From NCBI GenBank assembly GCA_963842185.1, contig CAWJFL010000018.1, forward strand, positions 1,262 through 65,261: a DNA stretch of 64,000 nt, read 5' to 3'. Each line of letters starts with the position of its first letter. Position 1 is the first letter of the stretch. The notes beneath the pieces are model-generated. The model saw nothing but the letters and a program-made list of their open reading frames with translations. It was not told the origin of the DNA and did not search any database. This document shows positions 40,798 to 52,467 of this stretch, piece after piece. Source of the DNA: an uncultured Verrucomicrobiae bacterium (GTDB taxonomy: Bacteria; Verrucomicrobiota; Verrucomicrobiia; Palsa-1439). Position numbers and translations under genes: made by a program.

Positions 40798-40930
40798 AGA
40801 TCACATGGGTAAGCCGATCTCGTCACACGGAGCGGCGTTGCGCGACTGTTCGGGCTGACGCCAACGGAGTGGATGCCCGGGGTTGCCAACCCGCACTCTG
40901 GCAAAGCACACGGAATGGGGTGATACTGGG

Positions 40931-43315
40931 ATGTCTCGGACCATGGAACCTGCGCCACCAACCGCTGTCGCGAGCGAACCGGCCGGGCCGCCGTGCGCCG
41001 ATGCGCCCGGCCTGACCGCCGCCGAAGCCCGACTGCGTCTTGCGCAGGTCGGTCCCAACGCCGTGCGCGAGGAACAACCCCATCCGCTCCGTCAATTCTT
41101 GCGCCGGTTCTGGACGCCGATTCCGTGGCTGCTGGAAGCGACCATCCTCATCCAACTCTTTCTTGGCGAACGGGTCGAGGCGAGCGTCATCGGGGGGCTA
41201 CTGGTGTTGAATGCGGTCCTGAGCTTTCTGCAAGAAGGTCGCGCCCAAAAGGCGCTGGCGCTGCTGCGGCAGCAACTCCACGTCGAGGCCCGCGTCCGGC
41301 GCGACAGCCAGTGGAACACCATCAGCGCGGAGGACCTGGTGCCCGACGACCTGATTCATCTACGCCAAGGCGGCATCGTGCCTGCCGACGTGCGGGTGTG
41401 CGACGGTTCGCTGCTGGTGGACCAGTCGGCGCTCACCGGCGAATCCGCTGCTGTCCAAATCCCGCAGGGTAAAACCGCCTACGCCGGCGCGTTGGTGCGG
41501 GGCGGTGAAGCCACGGGCATCGTCACCGCGACCGGCGCGCGCACCTTTTTTGGCAAAACGGCGGAATTGGTGCGCACCGCCCATGTTGTCAATCGGCAGG
41601 AGCACGAGATCGTCCGCGTCGTGCGCGATCTGTTCGTGTTGAACGCGGGCCTGATCGTCATCGTCTTTGGCGTGGCGCATGTCCGGGGGCTGACGTTGGT
41701 GTACACGCTGCCGCTGGTGCTGACGATCCTGCTGGCATCCATTCCCGTCGCGCTGCCGGCGACATTCACGCTCGCCGCGGCGCTCGGCTCGTTGGAGTTG
41801 TCGAGGTTCGGCGTGTTGGTGACGCGCCTGAGCGCGCTGCACGACATCGCCTCGATGACCGTGTTGTGCACCGACAAAACCGGCACGCTCACGCGCAACG
41901 AGGCAACCCTCAGCACGTTGCGTCCCGCGGACGGATTCACCGAGGAGCAGTTGCTGCGGGCCGCGTGGCTTGCCAGCGATCCGGCGGGGCACGACCCCGT
42001 GGACGGCGCGATGGTGCGCGCGGCGGTAGCGCGGGGTCTGGCGGGCAACGGCTCGATGCGTGTCGAGTTCAAGCCGTTCGACCCCGCGACGAAGCGCGCC
42101 GAAGCCGCGTATCACGAGGCCGATGGCGTGCGCCGCTACACGAAAGGCGCGCCCGCTGTCGTCGCCGAACTCTGCGGCGTGCCGGAGCCCGTGTGGCTGC
42201 CGCGAGAACAGGAACTGGCCGCGCGCGGCCAGCGCGTGCTGGGTGTGGCTACCGGCGAGGACGGCCAACTGCGGTTCGCCGGTTTGGTCAGCCTCGAGGA
42301 TGCGGTGCGCGACGATTCCCGCGCGGTTGTCCAAGCGATCCACGACGCCGGCGTGCGTGTGGTGATGGTAACGGGCGACAACACGCTCACCGCCCGCGCC
42401 GTGGCCGAGCAGGTGGGGATTCCATCGCAGGTGTGTCCGCCCGCCGACCCACATGGCGACCTCAGCGATGGCGCGTTGGAAAACAGCGTGTTCGCGGGTG
42501 TGTTTCCCGAAGACAAATTCAAGCTGGTCCGCGCCTTCCAACGGCAAGGGGCGGTGGTGGGCATGAGCGGCGACGGGGTGAATGACGCGCCCGCGTTGCG
42601 CCAGGCCGAGGCGGGCGTGGCCGTGGCCAACGCCACCGATGTGGCCAAGGCCGCCGCCGCCATCGTGCTGACCCGTCCCGGACTGGCCGACGTGGTGCCG
42701 GCCATCGAAGCGAGCCGGCGGGTGTTCCAGCGCGTGATGACCTACACCCTCAACATGCTCGCCAAGAAAATCGAGCTCATGCTGCTGCTGGTCATCGGCT
42801 TCCTCCTGACCGGCCACAGGCTCCTCACGCCCTTGCTGATGGTGCTGATCATCTTCCTCAACGACTTCCTCACGATGTCACTCACCACCGATCGCATGAG
42901 CGTGTCGGCACAGCCCAATCAATGGCGAACCCGCGCCGTCGTGACCGCCAGCACCGCGCTCGCCTTCTGCAAACTGGTTTTCAGCCTGGGGGTGTTTCTG
43001 CTGGCAGACTACGTCCTGCGCCTGGACCCGGCGCGGCTGCAAACGCTGACGTTTGCGACGCTGATTCTGACGTCCCAAGCGGGTGTGTATCTGTTGCGCG
43101 AGCGCCACCACTGCTGGACCTCGCCTCCCAGCCGCGACATGCTCGGGAGCACGGTCTTCGGCCTGGGCGTGACGGCGGCGCTTGCGCTGTCGGGTTGGCA
43201 CGTGCCCGCCATCCGCCCGGCCTTGCTTGCCGTCGTCGCCGTCGCTGCGGTTCTGTATTTCCTGGCGCTGGATTGGTTCAAAGTCTGGCTGTTTGCGCGG
43301 CTGCGCCTGCGGTGA
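40931..43315 (+). CDS. P-type ATPase, P3A (proton-efflux) type
   Basis: PIPWLLEA, LTGES, SIPVALP (TM4), DKTGTLT, GDGVNDAPAL, FLNDF (TM6 Asp). Confidence 0.85.
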   Translation: MSRTMEPAPPTAVASEPAGPPCADAPGLTAAEARLRLAQVGPNAVREEQPHPLRQFLRRFWTPIPWLLEATILIQLFLGERVEASVIGGLLVLNAVLSFLQEGRAQKALALLRQQLHVEARVRRDSQWNTISAEDLVPDDLIHLRQGGIVPADVRVCDGSLLVDQSALTGESAAVQIPQGKTAYAGALVRGGEATGIVTATGARTFFGKTAELVRTAHVVNRQEHEIVRVVRDLFVLNAGLIVIVFGVAHVRGLTLVYTLPLVLTILLASIPVALPATFTLAAALGSLELSRFGVLVTRLSALHDIASMTVLCTDKTGTLTRNEATLSTLRPADGFTEEQLLRAAWLASDPAGHDPVDGAMVRAAVARGLAGNGSMRVEFKPFDPATKRAEAAYHEADGVRRYTKGAPAVVAELCGVPEPVWLPREQELAARGQRVLGVATGEDGQLRFAGLVSLEDAVRDDSRAVVQAIHDAGVRVVMVTGDNTLTARAVAEQVGIPSQVCPPADPHGDLSDGALENSVFAGVFPEDKFKLVRAFQRQGAVVGMSGDGVNDAPALRQAEAGVAVANATDVAKAAAAIVLTRPGLADVVPAIEASRRVFQRVMTYTLNMLAKKIELMLLLVIGFLLTGHRLLTPLLMVLIIFLNDFLTMSLTTDRMSVSAQPNQWRTRAVVTASTALAFCKLVFSLGVFLLADYVLRLDPARLQTLTFATLILTSQAGVYLLRERHHCWTSPPSRDMLGSTVFGLGVTAALALSGWHVPAIRPALLAVVAVAAVLYFLALDWFKVWLFARLRLR

Positions 43316-44835: not shown

Positions 44836-45585
44836 TTAGACAAACAGTGATACGCACACCGACTCCGGGTGGCGATGATCCAGCCGCAACCGGCAGCCAA
44901 ACACAGCAGACATGCTTTCTTCTGTAAGTACCTCAACAGGTCGCCCTGCCATTGCCAAGCGGCCTTGAGCGAGCAGAAAGGCATGGTCCACAAACATTGG
45001 TGCAAATAACAAATCGTGGCAGACCATCAGCACCGTACAACCTCCCGCTGCCAAGGTTTGGGCCAACCGGTACACTTCGAGTTGGTGAGCGATGTCGAGG
45101 TGGCTGGACGGCTCGTCCAACAACAATACCGGCGTTGCTTGCGCTAACGCCCGTGCGATCACCACGCGCTGCCGTTCACCACCACTCAACTCGTCGAAGG
45201 GACGCTCCGACAATTCCGCCGCACCCACGCGCGTCAGGCTTGCCTCGATCACGGCTGCATCCTCGTCGCCGAGCGCGAACCGTCCTAATGCGACCATCTC
45301 CCGTGCCGTCAACGGCACGCCACGTGGCGTCTCCTGTGGCACGACGGCGATCCGCCGAGCCACCTCGCGCGGCGTGAGCGCATCAACCTGCTGGTCATCA
45401 CACCACGCCGTGCCCGACTGCGGCCGCAACGCGCCGGTCAGGCATCGCAACAACGTGCTCTTGCCGCTTCCGTTCGGCCCGAACAAGCCGGTGACCTTGC
45501 CGGTTGCGATTTCAAGATTCAACTCCCGCAACACCGGCGTGCCGGTTCGGTAGGCGAAACTCAGATTCTCGACGCGCAAGTTCAC
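44836..45585 (-). CDS. Iron-chelate/cobalamin-class ABC transporter ATPase
   Basis: GPNGSGKST, LSGGERQR, LDEPSSHLDIAHQ. Confidence 0.92.
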   Translation of the reverse strand: MNLRVENLSFAYRTGTPVLRELNLEIATGKVTGLFGPNGSGKSTLLRCLTGALRPQSGTAWCDDQQVDALTPREVARRIAVVPQETPRGVPLTAREMVALGRFALGDEDAAVIEASLTRVGAAELSERPFDELSGGERQRVVIARALAQATPVLLLDEPSSHLDIAHQLEVYRLAQTLAAGGCTVLMVCHDLLFAPMFVDHAFLLAQGRLAMAGRPVEVLTEESMSAVFGCRLRLDHRHPESVCVSLFV

Positions 45586-46559
45586 AGCGTTATCTTCCTC
45601 CGCAGCAGCCACAGAAAGACCGGCGCGCCGACCAGCGCCGTGAGAATGCCGACCGGGATTTCCGCTGGGGCGGCGAGCGTCCGTGCCAGTGTGTCGGCTA
45701 CCAACAACAGCAACGCGCCCCCGAGGGCCGTGGCTGGCACGAGACGGCGATGGTCACCGCCAACCGCCAGCCGCAGCAGGTGCGGCACGATCAGGCCAAT
45801 GAATCCGATCACGCCGGTCAGACTCACCGCCGCCGAGGCCGTGATGGCGATGAGCAGCAGCAACGCGTATTGAAGCCGTGGGACGTTCACGCCGAGGTCG
45901 CGCGCCGACGTTTCGCCGACGAGCGCGACGTTGAGCGAGCGGGCGAGCATTACCATTGTGACGAACGCGCCGAGCGCGACCGGCAACATCACCAGCACGG
46001 CCCGGCCATTGGCTTGCCAAAGACCACCCATCAACCAGAAGATGACCGCCGGCAGGCGTTCACCCGCAAGGTAGAGCGCGCCGGTGGTCAGCGCCGAGCA
46101 GAGTGCCGCGATGGCGATGCCGGCCAGTAGCAGGCTTTGACCGAAGAACGTTCCGCGCCGGCCCAGCGTGAACACGAGAGCGGTCACAGCCAGCCCGGCA
46201 GCGAAACTACCGATCGGCACCGCGACACCGGCCAGCATTGCGGCAACCGCACCGAGGGCTGCGCCGTTGGAGACACCGATGATCGAGGGCGTGGCGAGCG
46301 GATTGCGAAAGAGCGTCTGAGCGGCGAGCCCGCTCAATGCCAGCGCGGCACCGACACTACTGGCCAGCACAATGCGCGGCAGCCGGACAGTTAGCAGGAT
46401 TTGGTCGGCGGTGTCGCCTTTGGCCCGACCGCATGCGGCGCGGAATAGCCGTCCGGCCACTTCGCCTGCCGGGATGTAGACGCTGCCGACCCCGAACGCG
46501 ATGACGGCAACGCCGAGCAAAGCGATGAACAGGCCGAGTTGTAACGTGTTGCGGTTCAT
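45582..46559 (-). CDS. FecCD/BtuC-family permease
   Basis: VRLPR, QTLFRNPLA, GETSARDLGV, GVIGFIGLIVPH, EIPVG. Confidence 0.93.
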   Translation of the reverse strand: MNRNTLQLGLFIALLGVAVIAFGVGSVYIPAGEVAGRLFRAACGRAKGDTADQILLTVRLPRIVLASSVGAALALSGLAAQTLFRNPLATPSIIGVSNGAALGAVAAMLAGVAVPIGSFAAGLAVTALVFTLGRRGTFFGQSLLLAGIAIAALCSALTTGALYLAGERLPAVIFWLMGGLWQANGRAVLVMLPVALGAFVTMVMLARSLNVALVGETSARDLGVNVPRLQYALLLLIAITASAAVSLTGVIGFIGLIVPHLLRLAVGGDHRRLVPATALGGALLLLVADTLARTLAAPAEIPVGILTALVGAPVFLWLLRRKITL

Positions 46560-47293
46560 GCGATCTGACGCACGGCGAAGCGGTCGTCGCGCGGCACGAG
46601 GTTCAACGCTTCTTCAACGGTGAGATGCGAGGCGTCCACCTTGTCCAGATGCTGACGGCAAACCGTCACAGCTTGCTCCATCTGCGCCGCGGTCGGACGC
46701 GGGAACGGTTGGCCGGGCACGGGGATGTACCCCATGATGTGAAAGGGAATAGTCCGGTCGAGCGCTGCCACCCACGCGGCGACGGCTTCGACTTGATCGA
46801 GGTCCACGAAGCGGGGAATGAATACGATGTTGGCGCGCATCTCCAGACCACCGCGATAAGCGGCAGCGAAGTTGTCGAAGAACGGCTGGCGTTCGCGACC
46901 GGTGTAGCGGCGGTGAACCTCGTCGTCCCACGCCTTGAGGCCAACGTTGGCGCCATCGAGATTCGGCAATGGCAACCGCAAACCAATCGTGTGACCGAGA
47001 AAGGTGCGAACGCCGAGTTCCTGCTTGCAGAACGCGAGCGCTTCCGGCAGTTCGGTGGCGACCGTAGGTTCGCCGCCCATAAAGTTTACTTTCTCGACTG
47101 GCACGCTGCGCAGGGCGCGGCGCACCTCGTCCATGCTGAGGAACCGGGTCGGACGCGGCGTGATCTGGCCGGGACGTCCGTTCGGGCCACTGCGAAGTTT
47201 GTAACTGCAGGTGGGACAACGCAGCGTGCAGCCGAAGTTGTGGACGGTGGCGAACTGGTGTTTCTCATTGTACGTGATTCTGTGGAAAGACAC
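46556..47293 (-). CDS. Radical SAM enzyme (activase-like partial barrel)
   Basis: CTLRCPTC (CxxxCxxC) and FMGGEPT. RBS AAGGAG precedes the GTG start. Confidence 0.9.
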   Translation of the reverse strand: MSFHRITYNEKHQFATVHNFGCTLRCPTCSYKLRSGPNGRPGQITPRPTRFLSMDEVRRALRSVPVEKVNFMGGEPTVATELPEALAFCKQELGVRTFLGHTIGLRLPLPNLDGANVGLKAWDDEVHRRYTGRERQPFFDNFAAAYRGGLEMRANIVFIPRFVDLDQVEAVAAWVAALDRTIPFHIMGYIPVPGQPFPRPTAAQMEQAVTVCRQHLDKVDASHLTVEEALNLVPRDDRFAVRQIA

Positions 47294-47295
47294 GG

Positions 47296-48145
47296 TCAGT
47301 TCTCCTTTCCGTCGGCGCGATGGATAATCGCGCGCAATTGCTCTACGGAGGCGGACAACTGGCTGCCAGCCACCAAACAATTGCGGCCGACGCCGTAAAC
47401 GGCACCGCGACGGACGGCGCGCAGTTTGGCGAAGCCGGGACGTTGGCTGATGGCGTCGGCAGTGGTAAAGCCGTTGACGAAAAGAATTACATCCGGTTCG
47501 GCGGCAATGAGTTGCTCCGGCGAAAACACAACGCTGCCGCGCGCCACGCCCGCGGCGATGTTCGTGCCGCCGGCCAGGGTGATGAGGTCGTTGACATAGC
47601 TGTCACCGCCTACGGTCTTGAAGGCACCGTAGAGTTCGAGATACACGCGCGGCGGATTGGCGGGCGCGTTGGTGTGCAAGTATAGGAACGCGACAAGGTC
47701 ATCCGCAAGCCGGTCGGTGAGAGCTTCGCGTCCGACGCGTTGGCCAATGAGCCGAACTGGTGCCCGGTAACTCGGCGACGTGACCGGCACGGATGCGCAC
47801 TACTGGAACCGACAGTTCCCCGAGCAGCTTCGCCGCGTCGTCCTGATACCACCAGATAAACGCGAGGTCCATGCGCCGTGCGAGAACTTCTTCGCGCGAG
47901 AGCGCGCTGCCTTTGGCAATGACTGGTATGTTGGTCGCGCCGGGTACGACGCGACTGTACTCATCGATGGCCGCCAACTGGTCGCGCGCGCCGACAGCCA
48001 GCAGCACGTCCGTGGCGGTGGTGCAGAGGCTGAGGATACGTCGTGGCGGCTCGGCCAAGCCATTGGGAGAAAAAACGAAACCAAGCAATACGAGACCAAA
48101 TGTCGAAAGAAACAACCGCCCGATTGAAGTGAGAGCGCGCATCAT
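47296..48145 (-). CDS. BtuF-like (helical backbone) substrate-binding protein, frameshift near 47760
   Basis: Signal peptide, PRRILSLCTTATDVLLAVG, then in the second frame GGDSYVNDLITLAGGTN and SPEQLIAAEPDVI. Confidence 0.85.
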
Positions 48146-49593
48146 GGCACCAACAGGCGAACGCGATAGTAGCGGGCTGGACCGTTCGTGGCCCCCCCAC
48201 GATCAGTTGCGTTAGTCAGGACGTTGCCGAGCGTGGTAATGATATTGGTGAGACCCGTGCTCGCGAAATTATCCGTGAAACCTTCCCGGGCGTCGCCCGC
48301 AGCGTATTCCAATATGTTGGTCTTGCCCTGCCCAAACAAACCACTTGGATCCCCACCGGATGTCTTCCACGTGATTTGAACGTCGTTGCCTTGGGGGACC
48401 TCGCTTGTGATAGCGAACACGGACGCTGGATTGGTCGGGTTCAACCCGAGTAGGAATTGGTTGGTATTGCTGATGCCCTTGCCGTAAGGGTCGGCATTGG
48501 CTTGGGCCCGGGGGCAGTTCGTGCAGTTGAAGTAGAGCATCTGCCACTGCTGCCACGGCGTCAGCACCGTTGGTCCCGTGATGGTCAGCACGGCAATTTG
48601 CGGTCGCAATCTGGATGCCACCGGCGACGGCACGTCAGCAGAGCACACGGAGAAGGTGATGTTGTTGCTGAAACTGGCCACGCAGGAGGTGACATTGAAG
48701 TCCACGATGCTCGGTCCGTAGTCCAAGCCGGTGGCCGACGGGTCCCACTCAGCGACACCGTCTCCTCCAAATTGAGTGCCGTTGAAATAGAGACGGTTGT
48801 TTTGACCGTCGGGAGCGTATGTATATAGCGCCTGCAATGCAGCAGAATTCACTTGGGCGATGTTGAGGCTACCGAAGGCCACTGTGCGGCTGCAAACTTC
48901 ACCGCTGGTCGGCACATTATAGATGTCGCCGCTACCCTCAGCGATGGCGTACTGAAATTGGTTGCTCAGCGCGCTCTGTTGATAGATGGATAGAAGCGAC
49001 ACTTGCATGATACGGCCATCGAATGAGTTGGATGTCGTAACCGTGATGGCGACCAAGTTGGAGGACCCGTCGGTATGCAGGTAGTTGGTATTGACCGGCA
49101 ACCCGACGAGCCAGACGCCGTACCCGCTACCGTACACAGACGGTTGGGTCGCGCTGAAGGAAGCATTGGTGTCGCTCGTCGAACCGAAATTCAGGCCACC
49201 GGACGCAAGAGCATTGCTGTTAACAGAGACGCTGAGGTTGGCGGTGTAATCGGGGGTGCCGCCCCAAAGAGTGAGAACGAGACGGCCGGTAACAACGTTG
49301 TCACAGGGTGGCAGGGCAAAGCTTACCGGCACGTTGTACGGCTGGCCAACCGCCGGGTTCCAGGCCATGTTTGTCCAAGTCGCCGAGGTCCCCATGTAAA
49401 GCGAGGCGTTGGCAACCGTGCCGCTGAGCACGGTCTGCATCCCTTGCCCGGCGAAATTGTACGTCGCGTTGCAGTGCGGTGCAGCCAACACAAACACCCC
49501 GACAGCAAGCGCGTCGATGAAGCCGCGTCGCCGACGATTCGGTCGTATTCGCCACGGCCGACAGCCACTCTTGCTTGCATGAAGCGAAATCAT
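48142..49593 (-). CDS. Secreted DUF3344-like beta-rich protein with a verrucomicrobial C-terminal domain
   Basis: RRRRGF plus hydrophobic signal (Tat-like). WGG, VYGSGYGVW and FDGRI segments recalled as DUF3344-like. C-terminus PWQQWQMLYF..ADPYGKG..ARYYRVRL. Confidence 0.65.
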   Translation of the reverse strand: MISLHASKSGCRPWRIRPNRRRRGFIDALAVGVFVLAAPHCNATYNFAGQGMQTVLSGTVANASLYMGTSATWTNMAWNPAVGQPYNVPVSFALPPCDNVVTGRLVLTLWGGTPDYTANLSVSVNSNALASGGLNFGSTSDTNASFSATQPSVYGSGYGVWLVGLPVNTNYLHTDGSSNLVAITVTTSNSFDGRIMQVSLLSIYQQSALSNQFQYAIAEGSGDIYNVPTSGEVCSRTVAFGSLNIAQVNSAALQALYTYAPDGQNNRLYFNGTQFGGDGVAEWDPSATGLDYGPSIVDFNVTSCVASFSNNITFSVCSADVPSPVASRLRPQIAVLTITGPTVLTPWQQWQMLYFNCTNCPRAQANADPYGKGISNTNQFLLGLNPTNPASVFAITSEVPQGNDVQITWKTSGGDPSGLFGQGKTNILEYAAGDAREGFTDNFASTGLTNIITTLGNVLTNATDRGGATNGPARYYRVRLLVP

Positions 49594-50279
49594 TGTGAGG
49601 CATCCCAATCTTGCTTTGTGGTCGTGGTTCTTCGCTCGACGTGTCCGTCGAAAAACAAAGCGTCGAAACTGTTCCCCGCGTGCCGGTAATTCACATCCAC
49701 GACTGGATCGCTGAAAATGCCACCGCCTCCGCAGTAGTACTTCCCCGGGGTACAATCGGCGATGAAGATCGTCCCGGAAGGTCGGGCGATGTTCCGCTCC
49801 TTGACGCCGTACCATAAGCAGTATGGTATGCCCGCGAAATTGAAAGAGTTGATTCCATAGCTGAGCGTGATCTGTAAGTCCCAAGTGCAAGGAATTGCTT
49901 TCAGATCTGCAGGACAACGAAACACGCCGGATTGCTTTGGAATCAACGGTTTGATCAGGTCCATCCACCGACATGAGGCGTTGATATACGCGGGCGGCGT
50001 CACCCCGCAGTCATCCAGGTACAGGCGCATCGCCAGTCCAATCTGATGCAGGTTGCTCAAGCAAGCGGCCCCCTGCGCTGTGCGCTTCGCGCGACCGAGA
50101 GCTGGAACAAGCATTCCCGCCAGCACTGTGATGATCGCAATCACCACGAGCAACTCGATGAGGGTAAACCCGGGTTGACCGTTCTTTGCACACCCTCCGT
50201 TGGGGAAAGGGCGCATGCGGCCCGGTTTCTGAAGAAGACCTTTGTCAAGCGAGATGCCGAAGCGGGTGACTCCTTTCAT
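49590..50279 (-). CDS. Prepilin-type N-terminal cleavage/methylation protein (PVC H-X9-DG-like family)
   Basis: G|FTLIELLVVIAII, CLSNLHQIGLAM..Y, FRCPAD, RHAGNSFDALFFDGHVE. Confidence 0.9.
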   Translation of the reverse strand: MKGVTRFGISLDKGLLQKPGRMRPFPNGGCAKNGQPGFTLIELLVVIAIITVLAGMLVPALGRAKRTAQGAACLSNLHQIGLAMRLYLDDCGVTPPAYINASCRWMDLIKPLIPKQSGVFRCPADLKAIPCTWDLQITLSYGINSFNFAGIPYCLWYGVKERNIARPSGTIFIADCTPGKYYCGGGGIFSDPVVDVNYRHAGNSFDALFFDGHVERRTTTTKQDWDASQ

Positions 50280-50280
50280 C

Positions 50281-50308
50281 GTGTGACGAGTATTATGATA
50301 CGTAACAC
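50281..50308. promoter_or_regulatory. NikR-type operator overlapping the leftward promoter
   Basis: GTGTGAC-N14-GTAACAC (28 bp). Minus-strand TTGACG-N17-AATACT promoter at 50317-50289. Confidence 0.78.
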
Positions 50309-50431
50309 CACCGTCAAGCCCATTCGCGCTCATTGCACCACAACAACGCGGGCGTTTCCGGTGACAACCCGACGATTTCCGGAGCTACGCACAATCAACC
50401 GCTCCGGGGCTATGCAATTCGCGCTTGACAG

Positions 50432-50459
50432 ATGTTACGACCATTTATACACGTAACAC
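50432..50459. promoter_or_regulatory. NikR-type operator overlapping the rightward promoter
   Basis: ATGTTAC-N14-GTAACAC (28 bp) directly after TTGACA (50425-50430). Confidence 0.8.
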
Positions 50460-50502
50460 CAAAACAAATCGTCGCACATCAATATCGAAGGAAACCACTG
50501 TT

Positions 50503-51738
50503 ATGAAGAAACAACAAACCTACTTCACCGTACTCGCAACCACGCTGTTTCTATTCAGCGGGGGTGCCGCCCGGGCCCAGTTCACCTTGATCGAGTCGTT
50601 TAGCGGCACGAGTGGGGCCAGTCCTGGAGCGAATCCATATTACGGCGCGCCGGCCATTTCCGGATCAACTCTCTACGGAGTGACCGACTACGGCGGCAGC
50701 ACCGGCAAGGGCGTGGTCTATTCGATGAACACCGATGGCAGCGACTACACAATCCTGCATACGTTTACCGGCTCTACGTCCGACGGTTATGGTCCTCTCG
50801 GTTCGGTGGTGCTGAGCGGCTCGACCCTCTACGGGACGACCTACTACGGTGGCAGTGCCAACGACGGCGTTATCTACTCGGTCAATACCGATGGCTCCGG
50901 GTACCAAACGTTGTACAGTTTTACGACCGGTGCTGGCTACAAGCCATACAGTACTTTGCTGATGAACGGCTCGACCGTCTACGGGACGACCTACTACAGT
51001 AATGGCGGCCTCGGCTCGATCTTCTCGTTCAACACCTCCAGTTCCAGTTATAGCAATCTTTACACCTTTACCGGCGGTCCTGGGAGTGGCTCCAGTCCTC
51101 TTGGTGGTGGGTTGATAATGAACGGTTCAACGCTCTACGGAATGGCCACACACGGAGGCTCCAGTACCGTCAGCAGCAAGGATGGGGTTGTCTTCCAAAT
51201 CAACCCGAACGGCAGCGGGTACACCAACCTAGTCAACTTCGCCGGCGGATCGGATGGCGCCAATCCCTACGGCGGGCTGACGCTGGCCGGCTCGACTCTC
51301 TATGGAATGACCCGGATCGGCGGCAGCGCCAACGATGGCACGATATTCTCGGTCAATCTCGATGGCACCGGTTACACCAATCTGTACAGCTTCAGCGGCG
51401 GCGCACCGAGTGGCGCCAACCCCAACGGTTCGCTGACGTTGGCTGGCTCGACTCTCTATGGAACGACCAAGAGCGGTGGCAGCGCGAATGATGGCACAGT
51501 GTTCGGGATCAATCTTGATGGCACTGGTTACACCAATCTGTACAGCTTCGCCGGCGGAGCGGATGGCAAGAATCCGGACGGTGATCTCTCGGCGGTCGGC
51601 AACACCCTCTATGGATGGACTTCCGCGGGTGGCAGCGCGGGTGACGGCACGGTCTTCGCAATAACGATTCCGGAGCCGTCCAGCTACTCATTGCTCGGTT
51701 GCGGGTTGGCAATCTTGTTGTTCCTTCGCCGCCGATAG
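50503..51738 (+). CDS. GloVer-type tandem-repeat beta-propeller protein with PEP-CTERM
   Basis: Signal peptide, about 7 repeats of GSTLYGTTxxGGSANDGTVF..DGTGYTNLYSF, and IPEPSSYSLLGCGLAILLFLRRR. Confidence 0.88.
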   Translation: MKKQQTYFTVLATTLFLFSGGAARAQFTLIESFSGTSGASPGANPYYGAPAISGSTLYGVTDYGGSTGKGVVYSMNTDGSDYTILHTFTGSTSDGYGPLGSVVLSGSTLYGTTYYGGSANDGVIYSVNTDGSGYQTLYSFTTGAGYKPYSTLLMNGSTVYGTTYYSNGGLGSIFSFNTSSSSYSNLYTFTGGPGSGSSPLGGGLIMNGSTLYGMATHGGSSTVSSKDGVVFQINPNGSGYTNLVNFAGGSDGANPYGGLTLAGSTLYGMTRIGGSANDGTIFSVNLDGTGYTNLYSFSGGAPSGANPNGSLTLAGSTLYGTTKSGGSANDGTVFGINLDGTGYTNLYSFAGGADGKNPDGDLSAVGNTLYGWTSAGGSAGDGTVFAITIPEPSSYSLLGCGLAILLFLRRR

Positions 51739-51764: not shown

Positions 51765-52187
51765 TCATCCCGGCAAATCTTTTCCGGTGCCGGTGATGGT
51801 GAGCTTGCCGTGTTTGACGCCCTTGGCGGCGATGAGTTCGTCGGCCAGTCTTTTGATGTCAACGGCCTTGCCGCGCACCGCGAGGATTTCAAGGCAGTTG
51901 TCGTGGTCGAGATGACAGTGCAGCGCGGAGATAATCACCTCGCGGTGCTCGTGCTGGAGGTCGGTTAGCAAGTCCTGCAAGTGGTGCTTGTGATGGTCAT
52001 ACACGAGGGTAATGCTGCCCGCGATCTCGCCCCGGCCCAACTGTTGCCGGTGTTCGACCAGATGGGCGCGGATCATGTCCGCAATAGCCAGCGACCGATT
52101 GTCGTAGCCTTTCTCGCCGCACATGCGATCAAGTTCGTGCAGGAGTTTCTTGTCGAGCGAAACGCTGAAACGGGTGACCTTTTCCAT
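51765..52187 (-). CDS. nikR: Nickel-responsive transcriptional regulator
   Basis: RFSVSL RHH strand, YDNRSLAIADMIR, YDHH, QH, HCHLDHDNCLE nickel ligands. Confidence 0.96.
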   Translation of the reverse strand: MEKVTRFSVSLDKKLLHELDRMCGEKGYDNRSLAIADMIRAHLVEHRQQLGRGEIAGSITLVYDHHKHHLQDLLTDLQHEHREVIISALHCHLDHDNCLEILAVRGKAVDIKRLADELIAAKGVKHGKLTITGTGKDLPG

Positions 52188-52467
52188 AGTGTTACGGTTT
52201 CTCATGAGTAGTATTATTATGAGCGCCTGCGTCAAGCGTTTTTTGCGGCGTGACGTTTTCGTGGGAAGAACCTGTGCAGGACCAGTCCGTTCTCCGTCGG
52301 CGAAATTCGGACGCCACCGAAGTCTGCGCTGCAACCCCCGCCGCGCGCGCCAGCAGCGGGCAACTGCCTTGCCGCCCATTCTGTGTCTCGGCGGCGGCGG
52401 TGCCAGATGCTCGGAGTTCCCTGTCGACGCGTCCGCGATAGGCGATTGTTGGCTATGTCACTGCTGA

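Follow-up and report, generated by a model that had tools for sequence, protein, structure and literature searches.

How does a pilin-like gene of a Verrucomicrobiae bacterium come to begin with codons that resemble the start of nikR, the gene of the nickel-dependent regulator NikR? The question was raised by a first-pass annotation of the stretch of DNA analysed here (64,000 nt of a metagenome-assembled genome, in the following referred to as the window), according to which a nikR promoter, its operator and about 22 codons had been fused to a pilin gene, an event by which the operon would have gained nickel regulation.

Start region of the pilin-like gene

The gene is encoded on the minus strand and extends from an ATG at 50279 to a stop codon at 49590; its product, counted from this first ATG, has 229 residues. 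The ATG (50279–50277) opens MKGVTRFGISLDKGLLQKPGRM, which reads in frame into the motif G|FTLIELL (Gly codon 50171–50169, Phe codon 50168–50166), as had been proposed and as was confirmed by reading the minus strand from 50279. The intact nikR of the window, found on this strand 1.9 kb further upstream, opens MEKVTRFSVSLDKKLLHELDRM; 13 of the first 22 residues are identical in the two proteins. At the DNA level, the local alignment of 50288–50242 with 52196–52150 has a score of 42, which none of 500 shuffled controls attained (mean 17.7, sd 2.1, maximum 30, with only the mononucleotide content preserved). When the 29-residue N-terminus of NikR was compared by tblastn with the 4.18 Mb genome, the leader of the pilin-like protein was the top non-self match among the matches listed, best first (27.3 bits, E 0.013; the subject next in rank had 21.2 bits). 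The proposed resemblance of the prepilin start to the NikR start thus holds for the protein as well as, against shuffled controls, for the DNA. Aligned without gaps over 66 nt, the NikR-like stretch, here called the stub, is 68% identical to nikR of the window and 77% identical to nikR of L021, one of the related loci.

The coding sequence can be divided into the stub, a native prepilin-type leader and the mature protein (Table 1). Codon 22 of the stub (ATG, 50216–50214) probably coincides with the original pilin start; the sequence past it resembles the native MRR or MTRR starts of related pilin-like proteins, and stub codons 19–22 match codons 19–22 of the nikR gene of L040, another related locus, at 9 of 12 bases. 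An origin of the stub residues KPG from the C-terminal LPG of NikR was also considered, and was dropped because the latter alignment is simpler. From ATG 50279, the full leader up to Gly-1 amounts to 37 residues, 22 of them NikR-like, followed by 15 others. Gly-1, Phe+1 and Glu+5 of the N-terminal methylation motif are all present (GFTLIELL), and Pfam N_methyl (PF07963) matches residues 33–57 (E 1.1e-08, 34.7 bits versus a cut-off of 21.2 bits). N_methyl was the only match of the window protein in a Pfam scan at E ≤0.01, while PF07596, which we take to be the family of DUF1559 or H-X9-DG pilin-like proteins, is precomputed on most of its close homologs. The genome has one Peptidase_A24 gene (83.5 bits), that is, one prepilin peptidase gene. 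Compared to the class III signal peptides of type IV prepilins and pseudopilins, the protein has the same Gly-1, Phe+1 and Glu+5 and the subsequent hydrophobic helix; it differs in its predicted leader of 37 residues, 21–22 of which stem from a transcription factor gene, the leaders annotated in close relatives having 7–34.

Since the stub is a fragment of a ribbon-helix-helix (RHH) domain, spanning its β-strand and the start of helix 1, the direction of the relationship is from nikR to pilin. The stub itself does not qualify as a NikR: only 22 codons are homologous, no RHH_1 match was found on the 229-residue protein at E ≤0.01, and NikR_C is absent, N_methyl being the sole Pfam match; there is, hence, neither a complete RHH domain nor NikR_C. 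A comparison of leader residues 1–40 with a set of 5.8 billion proteins retrieved the window's own cluster only, by a method that needs shared 5-residue words and is therefore uninformative on rarity.

Table 1 Features around the pilin-like gene (window coordinates; a dot marks features without strand)
Feature	Position	Strand	Basis or remark
nikR stub (start codon and 21 codons, corresponding to nikR codons 1–22)	50214..50279	-	DNA alignment, tblastn; stub alleles in L020 and P0002
Native prepilin-type leader RPFPNGGCAKNGQPG, last residue Gly-1	50169..50213	-	relatives begin MRR or MTRR here
Mature pilin-like protein and stop codon	49590..50168	-	N_methyl motif FTLIELL with Glu+5; relatives with PF07596
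-10-like hexamer AATACT	50289..50294	-	promoter scan, 9/12 consensus matches; 17 nt past TTGACG
Candidate proximal NikR box GTGTTAC-N14-GTCACAC	50281..50308	.	fits published NikR signal (PMC545781, as given there); overlaps -10 hexamer, one base short of ATG
-35-like hexamer TTGACG, pilin operon promoter	50312..50317	-	promoter scan; TTGAC(G/C) in 6/6 orthologous alleles
Candidate distal NikR box ATGTTAC-N14-GTAACAC	50432..50459	.	precedes divergent PEP-CTERM gene
Divergent repeat protein, weak PEP-CTERM-like end	50503..51738	+	between nikR and pilin operon
Intact nikR	51765..52187	-	RHH_1 and NikR_C (NikR_C E 9.8e-32); single match in genome
Orphan NikR half-site CGTAACAC, one base before nikR ATG	52189..52196	-	inspection; aligns with pilin-proximal half-site
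DUF3344-like gene	48142..49593	-	ATG overlaps pilin stop (ATGA)
Operon remainder: periplasmic binding protein (frameshifted), radical SAM enzyme, FecCD permease, ABC ATPase	44836..48145	-	

Candidate operators, promoter and neighboring genes

The half-site-like elements noted by the first-pass annotation one base before each of the two start codons, GTCACAC at the pilin-like gene and GTAACAC at nikR, are present and are half-sites of NikR boxes. GTCACAC forms the right arm of a 28-bp palindrome (50281–50308), and a second palindrome of this kind precedes the divergent gene (50432–50459); the half-site at nikR of the window (52189–52196) has, by inspection, no partner at N13 or N14. For delta-proteobacteria, Rodionov et al. 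(2004, PMC545781) predicted a NikR signal GTGTTAC-[N13/14]-GTAACAC in front of operons encoding nickel transporters, and they list the site of Geobacter sulfurreducens as GTGTTAC-[N14]-GTgACAC. Both boxes of the window are inverted repeats within the 27–28 bp of this signal and deviate from it by one mismatch each, and the proximal one has the same half-sites and 14-nt spacing as the G. sulfurreducens site as listed there; judged by their sequence, the two are candidate NikR operators of the published type. At most one mismatch allowed, a scan of the 4.18 Mb genome found two sites, namely these two boxes, versus one for the control pattern, and a relaxed NikR-box pattern likewise found two versus none for the control. 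At up to two mismatches, six sites versus 18 for the control were counted, and for this reason no further members of a regulon can be claimed.

What is shared with the delta-proteobacterial signal, as described in the cited work, is the 28-bp inverted repeat, which precedes a putative metal-uptake operon adjacent to nikR. The differences concern the host, here a Verrucomicrobiae, the position of the box, which here abuts the start codon, and the targets, which are pilin-like, DUF3344, BtuF/FecCD/ABC importer, radical SAM and PEP-CTERM-like genes, as opposed to nikMNQO in the operons given for that signal in PMC545781. For enterobacteria, the same source quotes the operator consensus GTATGAT-[N13/14]-ATCATAC of the nik operon and a nickel-dependent RHH repressor that binds a two-half-site palindrome over the promoter of a nickel importer; the palindrome over the promoter is common to both systems, whereas the half-site sequence quoted there differs and some relatives of the window have nikR-first operons. 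Upstream of the pilin-like gene of L006 (G018:C1) a hybrid box, GTGTTAC-N14-ATCATAC, was noticed by eye, with one half-site of the window type and the other of the enterobacterial type quoted in PMC545781. In L024, a palindrome GTTCACT-N13-AGTGAAC stands upstream of nikR (positions 1–46) in place of a NikR box.

Neither the regulator nor the operator is new in kind; what is unusual is the operon targeted, the phylum of the host and the presence of a regulator stub inside a prepilin leader. Within the literature library searched, nothing treats NikR and DUF1559 together, and a wider search found nothing on NikR in these phyla among the titles listed.

The upstream layouts of the two genes, which had been described as matching, do so in part: TTGACG and ATAATACT are present at both, but their spacings differ. 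In front of the pilin-like gene TTGACG is separated from ATAATACT by 15 nt and the half-site follows immediately, whereas at nikR the order is TTGACG, 12 nt, ATAATACT, 13 nt and the half-site. A consensus scan placed the -10 hexamer AATACT inside the proximal box, 9 nt away from ATG 50279. Six orthologous promoter alleles are available as DNA, those of the window, L020, L009 (identical to G001:C98), L021, L022 and L024 (L023 has the same allele as L024), in addition to three relatives represented by protein sequences only (P0002, P0003, P0004); all relatives are metagenome assemblies. In all six alleles TTGAC(G/C), the proximal box and the ATG one base after the box are kept. The proximal half-sites are identical in five of the six, with differing spacers in L020, L009, L021 and L022, and one of them is degenerate in L024; the distal box is conserved in L020, L009 and L021 and recognizable in L022 and L024. 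In the present-day organism, nickel-bound NikR acting in trans would bind the 28-bp boxes over the -10 regions and, by doing so, repress both the operon of pilin-like, DUF3344 and BtuCDF-like genes and the divergent gene.

The DUF3344-like protein has no Pfam match of its own, yet is 66% identical to the corresponding protein of L040, which matches DUF3344 at E 2.2e-17. The PEP-CTERM match of the divergent protein (E 0.0031, 18 bits) is below the cut-off of 20.7 bits. The gene for the BtuF-like periplasmic binding protein (47296–48145, minus strand) has a frameshift near 47757: residues 1–145 and 146–286 of its L040 homolog match it in different frames, while the gene is intact in L009, and the split copy is either a pseudogene or due to an assembly error. 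A P-type cation ATPase (E1-E2_ATPase, Hydrolase, Cation_ATPase_N) is encoded on the plus strand at 40883–43315, a few kb from the operon with the NikR box.

Origin of the NikR-like leader

The order of genes in related loci suggests how the stub may have come about. In L040 (identical to G001:C121), a NikR box GTATTAC-N14-GTAACAC is followed by a single base (t), the ATG of nikR and then the pilin-like gene, the start of which overlaps the nikR stop codon (ATGA); DUF3344 overlaps the pilin-like gene in the same manner (ATGA), and the gene for the periplasmic binding protein comes next. In L025, too, the nikR stop codon overlaps the pilin ATG. A promoter scan at the nikR box of L040 returned no consensus promoter. 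In a maximum-likelihood tree of the mature protein (21 rows, midpoint root, recombination ignored in a region that is recombinant), the clade of L025 is sister (99/99) to the one holding all stub alleles, and the stub-bearing P0002 is an early branch within the latter.

The stub therefore sits at the place of nikR in the L040 and L025 operons, and so a loss of the nikR body fits better than the capture of a foreign promoter. We consider it the best reading of these comparisons, with a probability of roughly 0.6, that the pilin-like gene has at its 5′ end a nikR fossil, left by an in-frame deletion in an operon that once began with nikR. The ancestral operon would have had nikR first, with the NikR box of the promoter abutting the nikR start codon and nikR overlapping the start of the pilin-like gene. 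In the lineage of the window a second copy of nikR would have been placed 1.9 kb upstream, on the far side of the PEP-CTERM gene, which has the opposite orientation; the nikR copy within the operon would then have lost codons 23–140 by a deletion joining the codon of Met22 to the pilin ATG. This would have spared the promoter together with the complete NikR box and, of the coding part, the start codon and a further 21 codons, which read in frame into the pilin gene. Such a deletion implies that nickel control was inherited rather than newly gained. It requires a preceding duplication of nikR, for which no intermediate was found among the relatives examined.

The reverse course, suggested by the first-pass annotation, is that the promoter, operator and first ~22 codons of nikR were duplicated onto a pilin gene that had previously been free of nickel control. 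Homology of promoter, operator, start codon and 22 codons bears out the notion of a nikR 5′ end fused to the pilin gene, but its capture from elsewhere is the less fitting explanation and in our view rather unlikely. It may appeal to the intact nikR 1.9 kb upstream on the same strand, which shares TTGACG, ATAATACT and the half-site-N-ATG arrangement with the pilin gene and whose promoter would fit a local duplication equally well; further, some duplication of nikR sequence is required by any model. However, the link of the pilin-like subfamily to nikR reaches well beyond the stub clade: nikR lies within the fetched flanks of 15 of 34 non-self loci, including six of the seven closest, and apart from the two nikR-first loci a divergent nikR adjoins the pilin-like gene in seven planctomycete loci (five distinct sequences). 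With a subfamily already tied to nikR in relatives, it is not supported that the operon gained nickel regulation by the fusion. Palindromes of the type GTATTAC-N13/14-GTAATAC were seen by eye between the divergent nikR and the pilin-like gene in the planctomycete-type contigs L030, L033 and L013; they indicate that the nikR link of the subfamily extends across PVC phyla.

The stub is located exactly at the nikR position of L040 and L025, and it is not closest to the supposed donor. The stubs of the window and of L020 are nearer to a nikR of the L021 type (77 and 82% identity, respectively, the latter over 66 nt) than to nikR of the window (68% each), the nikR genes being 74–92% identical among themselves; the NikR N-terminus of L020 itself, compared by eye, is markedly unlike the stub of L020. 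From TTGACG onward, the pilin promoter of L020 agrees with the nikR promoter of L021 in 25 of the first 29 positions by manual count, the variable spacer included. Moreover, a full box is found at the pilin gene and only a half-site at nikR of the window, which is the opposite of what would be expected of a recent copy from the latter. A likeness that arose by chance, or from nothing more than the operator common to both genes, is refuted by the sequence comparisons: although a match of 22 residues is short (E 0.013 taken alone), none of the 500 shuffles reached the DNA score, the similarity continues for 66 nt into the coding sequence past the box, and L020 and P0002 match NikR at partly different positions, with L020 82% identical in DNA to a nikR 5′ end.

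Start codon and fate of the stub

Whether the stub is translated depends on which of two ATG codons is used. Leaderless bacterial mRNAs begin at their start codon or a few bases ahead of it and have no Shine-Dalgarno motif. The pilin-like gene resembles them in that its start codon is situated a few bases past the transcript start predicted by the consensus scan, likewise without a Shine-Dalgarno motif. With the -10 hexamer as predicted, transcription would begin 2–4 nt before ATG 50279, the mRNA would be nearly leaderless, and the stub would be translated as the first 21–22 residues of a 37-residue leader, which, stub included, would be removed by the prepilin peptidase. We regard translation from this first ATG as reasonably probable. 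A start at the second ATG (50216), which would leave the stub as an untranslated relic and give an ordinary leader of 16 residues, is possible but clearly the weaker proposition. In its favor, the Met it encodes falls at the position where related proteins natively start with MRR or MTRR, and the stub evolves fast, with indels, and has lost its frame in L009; however, the predicted -10 hexamer leaves about 2–4 nt ahead of the first ATG, no Shine-Dalgarno-like motif was seen by inspection upstream of either ATG, the ATG homologous to the first one is the true nikR start in L040, and RNA folding of the 124-nt 5′ region gave nothing out of the ordinary (z 0.21). In L021 and L022, further, there is no second in-frame ATG (L021 has an in-frame TTG), which makes the ATG next to the box the only ATG start in these alleles.

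Contigs from RNA libraries (three metatranscriptome runs, in small shares) include identical 151-nt pieces at 49894–50179 and one piece at 50260–50410, although such contigs show neither starts, strand nor level and may stem from DNA carry-over; the latter piece even reaches upstream of the predicted promoter.

A search for the NikR-like leader in orthologs gave a mixed result. L020 and P0002 have it in frame and with 37 residues as in the window; in L021, L022 and L024 the leaders starting at the box-adjacent ATG are short (19 residues) and have no recognizable likeness to NikR. The box-adjacent ATG is thus in frame in five of the six alleles (leaders of 37, 37, 19, 19 and 19 codons), a retention of frame after indels that amounts to two of about three independent events and is not significant. 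The exception is L009, the closest named relative, where part of the stub is kept but the box-adjacent ATG is out of frame, with 79 nt to the Gly codon; there the second ATG is lost and a TGA lies ahead of the motif. This points either to a dispensable leader and a dead gene in L009 or to an assembly error. In the same genome (G001; L005/L009, G001:C98), the divergent PEP-CTERM-like gene is present as two open reading frames (L005 1–627 and 680–1216, minus strand) and is possibly interrupted, in addition to the frameshift in the pilin leader.

Between L020 and the window, the mature proteins are 97% identical (dS 0.08, dN/dS 0.18), and dN/dS of the mature protein versus relatives ranges from 0.06 to 0.18; the stubs of the two, in contrast, share 11 of 22 residues, and the stub has evolved at least as fast as neutral sites, with indels. 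Sliding identity shows the same: promoter and leader of L020 are 73–78% identical to those of the window between flanks of 97–100%, and in L009 the values are 42–73%, though nikR is 100% identical there. Versus L020, L009 and L021, both 50160–50460 and 51900–52260 (the 5′ two-thirds of nikR) stand out as islands of 40–78% identity in flanks of 97–100%; these islands suggest that divergent alleles have recombined, one edge being located at the conserved motif encoding FTLIELL. As judged from these alleles, the stub is not under constraint, and conservation is limited to the half-sites and the ATG, which argues against a function of a released peptide.

Such a function had been brought up by the first-pass annotation, which conceived that the peptide might interfere with NikR. 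The cleaved leader would then be a pro-peptide, the NikR β-strand/helix-1 fragment of which pairs with the RHH domain of NikR and modulates repression; freed in the cytoplasm by prepilin peptidase, it would, if real, act as a decoy by which each round of expression feeds back on the repressor. The idea is very improbable. The stub does comprise the RHH β-strand and the start of helix 1 and has kept an open, in-frame sequence in three alleles, those of the window, L020 and P0002, but only 11 of 22 residues are common to window and L020 next to mature proteins 97% identical, it is either deleted from L021, L022 and L024 or no longer recognizable there and has a frameshift in L009, and RHH_1 is not matched at E ≤0.01. 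Given that the stub changes far more quickly than the mature protein and that relatives have deleted it, a role of its peptide is not supported. It is probably a decaying leftover without a function of its own, in which the residues would be irrelevant and nothing would matter except the ATG next to the box and the reading frame.

If the nikR body was indeed lost from the operon, the locus provides a clean and datable example of how an autoregulated operon headed by its regulator becomes an operon regulated in trans. The operator, the start codon and a few codons would survive in such a case because the start codon adjoins the operator and the downstream gene lacks an initiation site of its own. 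It would also indicate that 21 residues of foreign origin can be accommodated in a prepilin leader. Within the very large family of PVC pilin-like proteins, there is a subfamily predicted to be consistently under the control of NikR and encoded beside a BtuCDF-like importer, a context that gives a testable link of the family to metal uptake.
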